This document shows positions 23,724-23,877 of a DNA stretch of 40,694 nt, piece after piece. Every line of letters starts with the position of its first letter. Within the stretch, counting starts at the first letter, position 1. Origin of the DNA: a virus (Duplodnaviria > Heunggongvirae > Uroviricota > Caudoviricetes). The translations under genes were made by a program, and so were the position numbers. The stretch lies in the IMG/VR virus record IMGVR_UViG_2874956758_000005; one strand, written 5' to 3'. Below the pieces are notes generated by a model that saw nothing but the letters and a program-made list of their open reading frames with translations, was not told the DNA's origin and made no database searches.

Positions 23724-23798
23724 GGTGCGACTACCGGAATCGAACTGGTGACCTACTGATTACAAGTCAGTTGCTCTACCTACTGAGCCAAGTCGGCA
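23724..23798 (-). tRNA. tRNA-Thr-like (anticodon UGU), irregular acceptor stem
   Basis: D arm GCTC-AGTAGGTA-GAGC, anticodon stem ACTGA/TCAGT loop CTTGTAA, T-loop TTCGATT; 3' acceptor strand AGTCG-C lacks one base and T-stem has an A-C mismatch. Confidence 0.5.
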
Positions 23799-23800
23799 CT

Positions 23801-23877
23801 GGACCGCCACCGGGGACTCGAACCTCGCACACTCAACTTAAAGGGTTGACGCTCTTTCCTGATGAGCTAGTGGCGGT
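23801..23877 (-). tRNA. tRNA-like gene, anticodon loop CCUUUAA (UUU, Lys-type?), atypical C33
   Basis: Perfect acceptor CCGCCAC/GTGGCGG, D arm GCTC...GAGC, anticodon stem TCAAC/GTTGA, T-loop TTCGAGT, CCA end; T-stem A-C mismatch. Confidence 0.5.

Follow-up and report, generated by a model that had tools for sequence, protein, structure and literature searches.

In Shiga toxin (Stx) phages such as Stx2a_F349 and phage 2851, the tRNA genes ileZ, argN and argO form an island downstream of the antiterminator gene Q and upstream of the lysis and stx genes. The codons AUA, CGA/CGG and AGA/AGG are rare in E. coli, and the Stx-phage island is classically seen as a means of supplying tRNAs for rare codons. 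A related island is present in a 40,694-nucleotide (nt) stretch of viral DNA (Caudoviricetes; IMG/VR record IMGVR_UViG_2874956758_000005), referred to here as the window. It consists of four tRNA genes, two of which, a Lys-like gene with a UUU anticodon and a Thr gene (together 23724–23877), have irregular features. Like the Stx-phage island, it lies downstream of Q, its first gene is a homologous CAU tRNA, and its Lys-like gene is homologous to argN. However, argN of Stx phages has a UCG anticodon and U33, whereas the window tRNA has UUU, C33 and compensatory changes in the anticodon stem. The third slot, filled by argO (tRNA-Arg UCU) in Stx phages, holds copies of the host genes thrU and glyT in the lineage of the window.

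A second point of comparison is functional. The AriB nuclease of the PARIS defense system cleaves tRNA-Lys(UUU) and tRNA-Thr(UGU) in the sequence U36AAUC|A41, at the bond joining positions 40 and 41 (PMC12409363). Phage T5 encodes a tRNA-Lys(UUU) that differs from the host tRNA around this cut (PMC11464382; PMC12409363), as does the window tRNA: the region reads U36AAUCA41 in the host, U36AAACC41 in T5 and U36AAGUU41 in the window. For the T5 tRNA, PARIS resistance and rescue have been demonstrated, whereas for the window tRNA they are predicted. The two also differ in that the window tRNA has an Arg-type scaffold and a temperate carrier, and the text consulted on the T5 tRNA describes no change at position 33. 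The Lys-like tRNA thus resembles the argN family by descent and, in its predicted function, the anti-PARIS tRNA-Lys of T5.

The general idea that phages carry loop-mutated tRNAs that evade nucleases has already been published (PMC10264068). As in the window, the phage copies of nuclease-targeted tRNAs described by van den Berg et al. (2023; PMC10264068) are substituted at or near the cleavage site. Unlike the present case, that work mainly concerns mycobacteriophage tRNAs and VapC sites, does not mention position 33, and explains coliphage tRNA-Lys genes by repair ligases rather than by loop changes. A natural C33 is found in the C32-C33-N-N-U36-A37-A38 loop of the initiator tRNA-Met of multicellular eukaryotes. 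That tRNA differs from the window tRNA in being an initiator whose cognate KEOPS complex co-evolved to accept C33, and the two share no common descent. For the enzymes of bacteria and yeast that form N6-threonylcarbamoyladenosine (t6A), C33 acts as an anti-determinant (PMC8887486; PMC5041475). With moderate confidence, the two irregular genes of the window can be read as a damaged copy of thrU and a remodeled argN-type tRNA that may act as a nuclease-evading surrogate for tRNA-Lys.

The Lys-like tRNA and the argN scaffold

The four genes of the island lie head to tail on the minus strand, as found by both ARAGORN and Rfam. In the order of transcription, they are a CAU tRNA (23878–23953; Infernal score, 72.5 bits), the Lys-like tRNA (23800–23876, anticodon UUU at 23840–23842; 44.4 bits), a tRNA-Thr(UGU) (23723/4–23797; 58.6 bits) and a tRNA-Gly(UCC) that is 100% identical to host glyT (23645–23719; 64.9 bits). 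ARAGORN calls the CAU tRNA Met. It is taken to be an ileZ-type Ile2 tRNA because the Prokaryotic Genome Annotation Pipeline (PGAP) labels it tRNA-Ile in near-identical loci. In the closest annotated relative, a lambdoid prophage, the island lies between Q and the holin, lysozyme and Rz genes. It occupies the same slot as ileZ-argN-argO of the Stx phages.

In the Lys-like tRNA, all seven pairs of the acceptor stem are formed, the anticodon stem is a regular helix of five base pairs (bp), and the anticodon loop, C32-C33-U-U-U-A-A, has 7 nt. The C at position 33 (window 23843), reported in a preliminary description of the window, is thus present in place of the U33 of canonical elongator tRNAs. 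Compared with host lysT, the tRNA has few matches beyond the universal tRNA positions. With argN of Stx phages (tRNA-Arg UCG) it shares the C1-G72 acceptor pair, U73, the D arm, the T arm and a non-Watson-Crick pair at 51:63, as well as its place directly after the CAU tRNA. By all of these features, it is an anticodon-remodeled member of the argN scaffold and not a diverged host tRNA-Lys. The remodeling comprises the change of the anticodon from UCG or UCU to UUU, the replacement of U33 by C33, the conversion of pair 30:40 from G-C to A-U, and that of pair 27:43 from U·G (C-G in some sister tRNAs) to U-A.

The cloverleaf has been kept throughout the family. Across 20 distinct scaffold sequences, 97.4% of cells were paired, against 29–54% in slid controls, and both-sided changes occurred at four pairs (4:69, 7:66, 27:43 and 30:40). 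The argN scaffold is therefore a constrained tRNA whose structure is preserved by compensatory changes. C33 was considered as the cause of the low tRNA score of the Lys-like gene and rejected: argN, which has U33, scores 43.0 bits, below the 44.4 bits of the Lys-like tRNA, so the low score belongs to the scaffold. Scoring with Infernal, proposed in the preliminary description as a check, places both irregular genes above the 29-bit gathering threshold of RF00005. The same description placed an A-C mismatch at one shared T-stem position in the two tRNAs. The mismatches are in fact adjacent, A51:C63 in the Lys-like tRNA (23825/23813) and A52:C62 in the Thr tRNA (23746/23736). Pair 51:63 is soft and can be G·U, G-C, A-U or A·C over the scaffold, so the A·C of the Lys-like tRNA is a tolerated state.

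Position 33 follows the anticodon. Scaffold copies were collected from IMG/VR and from loci picked solely through the junction between the Thr and Gly genes. Position 33 is U in the 65 copies with UCG, in the six with UCU (one of them on a body almost identical to that of the Lys-like tRNA) and in the single copy with GCG, and it is C in 82 of 82 copies with UUU; position 32 of the UUU class is occasionally A or U. On these alignments, the second slot of the lambdoid island is one tRNA scaffold under anticodon remodeling (UCG, UCU, GCG and UUU). Bacterial chromosomes give the same picture: the C33 anticodon arm is found at 822 places in 772 of 5,426 complete E. coli genomes (14%), 688 of the 772 being exact over the arm, and a synthetic U33 version of it has no match in the 5,426 genomes. 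U33 is thus missing from all 82 viral and all 822 genomic copies. A scan of species-representative genomes for variants at positions 32 and 33 gave two matches, both CC, and says little on taxonomic breadth.

The composition of the island varies. Ile-Lys-Thr-Gly was seen 70 times, Ile-Arg(UCG)-Arg(UCU) 57 times, Ile-Arg(UCU)-Thr-Gly six times and Ile-Lys-Arg(UCU) four times, besides other arrangements. The PPompW prophage carries a Lys-like tRNA of 76 nt (681–756 of its locus) that lacks T12 of the D stem, and its partner in the island is Arg(UCU) rather than Thr-Gly; PGAP annotates no tRNA at some copies of this type. In about seven IMG/VR contigs, the Thr-Gly pair is preceded by degenerate scaffold relatives of 73–74 nt with A73 and 6-nt anticodon loops, which ARAGORN labels "Stop(tta)," "Leu(taa)" or ambiguous. 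These are probably pseudo-tRNAs.

C33 also occurs outside this family. When IMG/VR was scanned for generic tRNA-shaped UUU loops with C33, with the argN-scaffold family excluded, 38 contigs were found to hold 28 distinct ordinary tRNA-Lys genes, which fall into about 17 clusters at 80% identity. None of these genes exceeds 71% identity to the window tRNA. Many phage tRNAs for Asn(GUU), Ile(GAU) and Thr(UGU) in IMG/VR likewise have C32-C33 loops. C33 is therefore a recurrent feature of phage tRNAs, many independent tRNA-Lys(UUU) genes among them, and it is not claimed to be targeted to nuclease substrates. An apparent enrichment of C33 in the anticodons attacked by PARIS, HepS and PrrC was discarded, as this first signal, a concentration in Asn, Ile, Thr and Lys tRNAs, came from loci picked by a skeleton that favored those tRNAs. 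No description of C33 in phage tRNAs was found in the literature searched.

Proposed function and competing explanations

The most likely function of the Lys-like tRNA, as suggested by its anticodon and loop, is that of a surrogate tRNA-Lys. Its UUU anticodon is that of host tRNA-Lys(UUU), a known target of PrrC, RloC and AriB. The tRNA would be charged by lysyl-tRNA synthetase (LysRS) through this anticodon and would read AAA and AAG during lytic growth, so that late translation could continue when host tRNA-Lys is attacked. AriB cleavage is abolished by U39A and inhibited by A41C, contacts with U16-U17 of the D-loop matter, and the tRNA-Lys of T5 escapes AriB through such changes (PMC12409363). 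Relative to lysT, the Lys-like tRNA has G for U39, U for C40 and U for A41, giving G-U-U at positions 39–41, and its D-loop has C16-A17. With U36AAGUU41 and C16-A17, both tested AriB determinants, U39 and A41, and the predicted D-loop contact are all changed. Replacement of U36-A-A-U-C|A41 by U36-A-A-G-U-U41, together with the altered D-loop, would be expected to make the tRNA a poor substrate for AriB.

Changes around position 33 may bear on two other nucleases. PrrC cleaves on the 3′ side of U33, and RloC cuts out the wobble nucleotide (PMC2610378). In the Lys-like tRNA, C takes the place of U on the 5′ side of the scissile phosphate of PrrC/RloC, which may make it a poorer substrate. PrrC recognizes the sequence of the anticodon, base modifications and pairing (PMC1950546), and PrrC170 can be overcome by phage tRNA-Lys, whereas E. 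coli tRNA-Lys rescues poorly (PMC11555353). Moreover, the reconstituted E. coli TsaBCDE system is unable to modify a U33C tRNA in vitro (PMC8887486). Because TsaBCDE fails on U33C tRNA, A37 of the Lys-like tRNA is probably unmodified; C33 should stop t6A37 formation and thereby remove a modification cue. Lambdoid phages do meet tRNA nucleases, although the documented example is not directed at tRNA-Lys: HepS is triggered by lambda-type J proteins and targets Thr, Ile and Ser tRNAs (PMC13043305). The earlier suggestion of deliberately altered, nuclease-resistant tRNAs is therefore plausible for the Lys-like tRNA, with U39 and A41 replaced and C33 beside the PrrC cut, and not for the Thr tRNA.

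Several observations weigh against a surrogate role. The identity elements recognized by LysRS are the anticodon U34-U35-U36 and A73; the Lys-like tRNA has U73 at the discriminator position, where E. coli tRNA-Lys has A73. Weaker decoding is to be expected from C33 combined with a loss of t6A37, and the t6A result itself comes from in vitro work on a different tRNA. The accompanying Thr gene keeps the AriB-sensitive sequence of the host. All UUU copies of the scaffold share one ancestor, so C33 became associated with UUU only once. In a sample with less bias, composed of IMG/VR loci chosen through a U33 tRNA, C33 was found in 11 of 538 tRNAs (2%), and nuclease-targeted anticodons were not enriched (2/104 vs. 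9/434); C33 could be a tolerated, neutral state. Sequence diversity points the same way. At π = 0.012, the Lys-like gene is about as variable as the flanking non-coding DNA (0.010–0.025), whereas its neighbors are far less so (Ile, 0.0007 over 37 clusters; Thr, 0.006; Gly, 0.0035). Furthermore, several Lys-like copies have stem-breaking changes or a D-stem deletion (e.g., the PPompW type), which suggests weak purifying selection.

The same observations are what make neutral decay the most serious competitor. Under this explanation, both irregular genes are decaying relics, the Lys-like gene being an argN-type tRNA with a mutated loop that is inactive in translation and hitch-hikes with its neighbors. 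A relic would account for the background-level diversity, the broken D and anticodon stems, the D-stem deletion, the degenerate 73–74-nt relatives in the same slot, the copies left unannotated by PGAP, and the occurrence of C33 in about 2% of phage tRNAs irrespective of anticodon; U73, the A51:C63 mismatch and C33 are all unfavorable features. However, one main haplotype dominates (50 of 92 clusters), as do exact anticodon arms among the 772 genomes, and the anticodon stem-loop showed no polymorphism in the diversity sample. The switch of anticodon came with the compensatory change of pair 30:40 and took two anticodon substitutions plus U33C, while the remaining body changed by approximately 10%. 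The tRNA is also retained in phages known from recovered particles or from deposited phage genomes. The decay of both genes is thus possible but not favored. C33 is at odds with the preliminary suggestion of a decaying pseudogene: it is fixed, occurs in 14% of complete E. coli genomes and goes together with compensatory stem changes.

A narrower proposal concerns C33 itself, as an adaptive "stealth" change that alters the flank of the PrrC/RloC cut and blocks t6A37, hiding ANN-decoding phage tRNAs from nucleases that read the modified loop, and on which phages would have hit repeatedly, in about 17 independent tRNA-Lys(UUU) lineages and many Asn, Ile and Thr tRNAs of IMG/VR. This is rather unlikely.

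A further alternative is that the whole island is an ordinary codon supply for the late genes of the phage, with C33 as a neutral passenger. Its homolog in Stx phages (Ile-CAU, Arg-UCG and Arg-UCU) decodes AUA, CGA/CGG and AGA/AGG, the Thr and Gly genes are exact copies of low-copy host tRNAs, and ACA, GGA, AUA, AGA and CGA are more common in prophage genes than in those of the host. The enrichment of ACA, GGA and AUA in prophage genes, 1.2- to 3-fold relative to K-12 reference values, gives the prophage a reason to carry additional Thr(UGU), Gly(UCC) and Ile(CAU) tRNAs. These host-identical genes more plausibly supplement tRNAs for the A-ending codons that the prophage favors. For the Lys-like tRNA, this explanation fares worse. 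AAA and AAG are not clearly over-used (Lys, 46–54 per 1000 codons in the prophage, against approximately 44 in K-12 and 58 in flanking host genes), and the lysT region of MG1655 by itself contains five tRNA-Lys(UUU) genes. Codon supply also leaves unexplained why a Lys decoder on a foreign scaffold has every known AriB determinant changed. As an account of the whole island, it is decidedly unlikely.

C33 perturbs the U-turn, and the lack of t6A37 raises frameshifting and misreading, but a frameshift-promoting or misreading tRNA, or the suppressor considered in the preliminary description, is highly improbable: the anticodons are UUU and UGU, neither complementary to a stop codon, both loops have the ordinary 7 nt rather than an expanded 8, the Lys-like stem is a regular 5 bp, and the label "Stop(tta)" was given by ARAGORN to just one slot relative, a degenerate sequence of 73 nt whose loop has 6 nt.

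The damaged copy of thrU

The Thr gene has a different history. In related prophages it is identical to MG1655 thrU over 76 of 76 nt, including the A52:C62 pair. The A-C mismatch listed among its irregularities is therefore present, base for base, in a working host tRNA. Sequence identity marks the Thr and Gly genes as copies captured from the host, of thrU and glyT, respectively. They are arranged in the prophage in the order Thr-Gly with a 3-nt spacer, unlike the thrU-tyrU-glyT-thrT operon of E. coli K-12. An origin of the Thr gene from argO by an anticodon switch (UCU to UGU) was considered and rejected, since the alignment with argO is weak and the gene is host thrU.

The window copy differs from thrU at two places, A9G (23789) and a 1-nt deletion in the 3′ strand of the acceptor stem. 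The 5′ strand reads GCCGACU and the 3′ strand AGUCG-CA, both in the Infernal alignment and on the minus strand as read directly: where the G70/G71 doublet is expected, there is one G (23728) and then C (23727). The seven-pair acceptor stem of a normal tRNA is consequently not formed in full, in agreement with the preliminary description, which had found the 3′ strand one base short. U33 and the 7-nt anticodon loop are retained.

The deletion is rare. When complete E. coli genomes were searched with a 71-nt query over the phage-specific Gly-Thr junction, the junction was found in 820 genomes and the short Thr allele in one of them, FDAARGOS_943. The window, 99.4–99.96% identical to this genome, is a separate assembly; no closer genome exists among the 5,426 complete RefSeq E. 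coli genomes. The window lacks the IS21 insertion found in the head-tail genes of FDAARGOS_943 (NZ_CP065615.1; compared at window 15439–15442), and the immunity segment differs between them (window 33590–34467). In FDAARGOS_943, an extra T in a T7 run frameshifts the gene for a replication ATPase (window site 31668), which is intact in the window (31265–32011). Two other contigs of IMG/VR, which match the window at 99.6% and 99.2% identity, have the same deletion; at least 120 IMG/VR contigs carry the wild-type Thr allele. The missing G is thus common to four non-identical assemblies, and every one of these copies has G9. Because all deleted copies have G9 and undeleted G9 copies also exist, A9G arose first and the deletion second.

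That the irregularities of the two genes are sequencing or assembly errors, as the preliminary description allowed, is barely credible: the single short allele among 820 complete genomes and the several annotated frameshifts of FDAARGOS_943, one of them due to the extra T that is absent from the window, would suit an error, but four non-identical assemblies with one deletion on a G9 background, at a GG doublet rather than a long homopolymer, rule out a random one, and C33 is found in 772 genomes and every viral copy, with no U33 allele.

The window copy scores 58.6 bits with Infernal and an intact copy 73.8, a loss of 15 bits. Its minimum-energy fold (−17.6 vs. −22.8 kcal/mol for the intact copy) lacks the acceptor helix; such folds of single tRNAs gave no cloverleaves and are usable solely for the loss of this helix. 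The best acceptor registers that remain have 6 bp and a bulged C, or 5 bp and two terminal mismatches. From these scores and folds, the Thr copy is most likely crippled or dead. With chromosomal thrU intact, its loss is of no cost to the cell. The lesion is real and heritable, and it reflects ordinary mutational decay rather than design. For this gene, then, the suggestion of a decaying pseudogene holds, in the form of a rare, lineage-specific deletion in a thrU copy that lowers its Infernal score by 15 bits.

Surroundings of the island and biological meaning

Expression of the island may depend on signals upstream of it. A candidate dedicated σ70 promoter, TTGCAA-17-TATTAT, matches the consensus at 23963–23991 on the minus strand and ends 10 nt upstream of the first tRNA gene. 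Further upstream, a pR′-like promoter site, likewise identified by consensus match, overlaps the 3′ end of Q (24136–24164). A GC-rich hairpin with U/T runs on both strands (24061–24084), likely a terminator of the tR′ type, lies between this promoter and Q on one side and the tRNA island on the other. The Q gene (24153–24842, minus strand) encodes 229 amino acids, and its product is identical at 215 of 227 positions to Q of the isolated phage vB_EcoM-606R7. Compared with that protein, the last approximately 10 amino acids are in another frame, the 3′ end of the gene crossing a poly-T/A tract (24153–24200). PGAP calls Q "frameshifted" in FDAARGOS_943 and FDAARGOS_944, and the variant is common to several assemblies. 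The frame variant at the 3′ end may leave Q active. The idea that the prophage is dead through a frameshifted Q was set aside, since the open reading frame is full length in the window and the last approximately 10 residues alone differ, which is poor evidence for a silent late operon.

Between tRNA-Gly and the holin gene (23500–23640, minus strand), two inverted repeats were seen by eye, GTCTTTCAGTC...GACTGAAAGAC and GAATGATCGC...GCGATCATTC, a T8 run being flanked by the second. These might serve in processing or terminating the transcript of the tRNA genes; they were not picked up by the terminator scan.

Elsewhere in the window, an accessory module (26610–30199) encodes a ParD antitoxin (26610–26930), a ParE toxin (26936–27247), a restriction endonuclease of the BsuBI/PstI type (27288–28370, minus strand) and the N6-adenine methyltransferase that is its partner (28367–30199, minus strand). 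No tRNA nuclease was found in this module (26.6–30.2 kb), the only part of the window scanned with PADLOC, which contains only the PstI-like restriction-modification genes and ParDE. Two RNA families were matched over their full length by Rfam, IS009 (41–239, minus strand; 222 bits) and the antisense small RNA DicF (36142–36193, plus strand; 76.7 bits). In the near-identical locus of FDAARGOS_943, DicF adjoins dicB, as in prophages of the Qin/Kim type.

The two irregular genes differ in what they imply. The lesion of the Thr copy is routine prophage decay and of minor importance. The tRNA with C33 is real and widespread; it is apparently an undescribed variant, and the counter-defense hypothesis attached to it can be tested. 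Few nucleotides in biology are as conserved as U33, and yet a prophage tRNA(UUU) with C33 is present in roughly one-seventh of complete E. coli genomes. If the "stealth" proposal for C33 were true, this would be the first virus to exploit a modification anti-determinant, and the E. coli prophage tRNA would be a tractable example of it. If the Lys-like tRNA proves to be unused, it would illustrate the extent to which a tRNA gene can drift and still receive the annotation tRNA-Lys. Should it be charged and used, the idea of phage tRNAs as counter-defense would extend beyond large lytic phages, T5 for example, to temperate phages of the ordinary lambdoid kind. The pair of C33 and U33 alleles would then offer a genetic handle on the roles of position 33 and t6A37 in nuclease recognition and decoding, and the question would arise of whether the ileZ-argN-argO island is more than a supply of tRNAs for rare codons.

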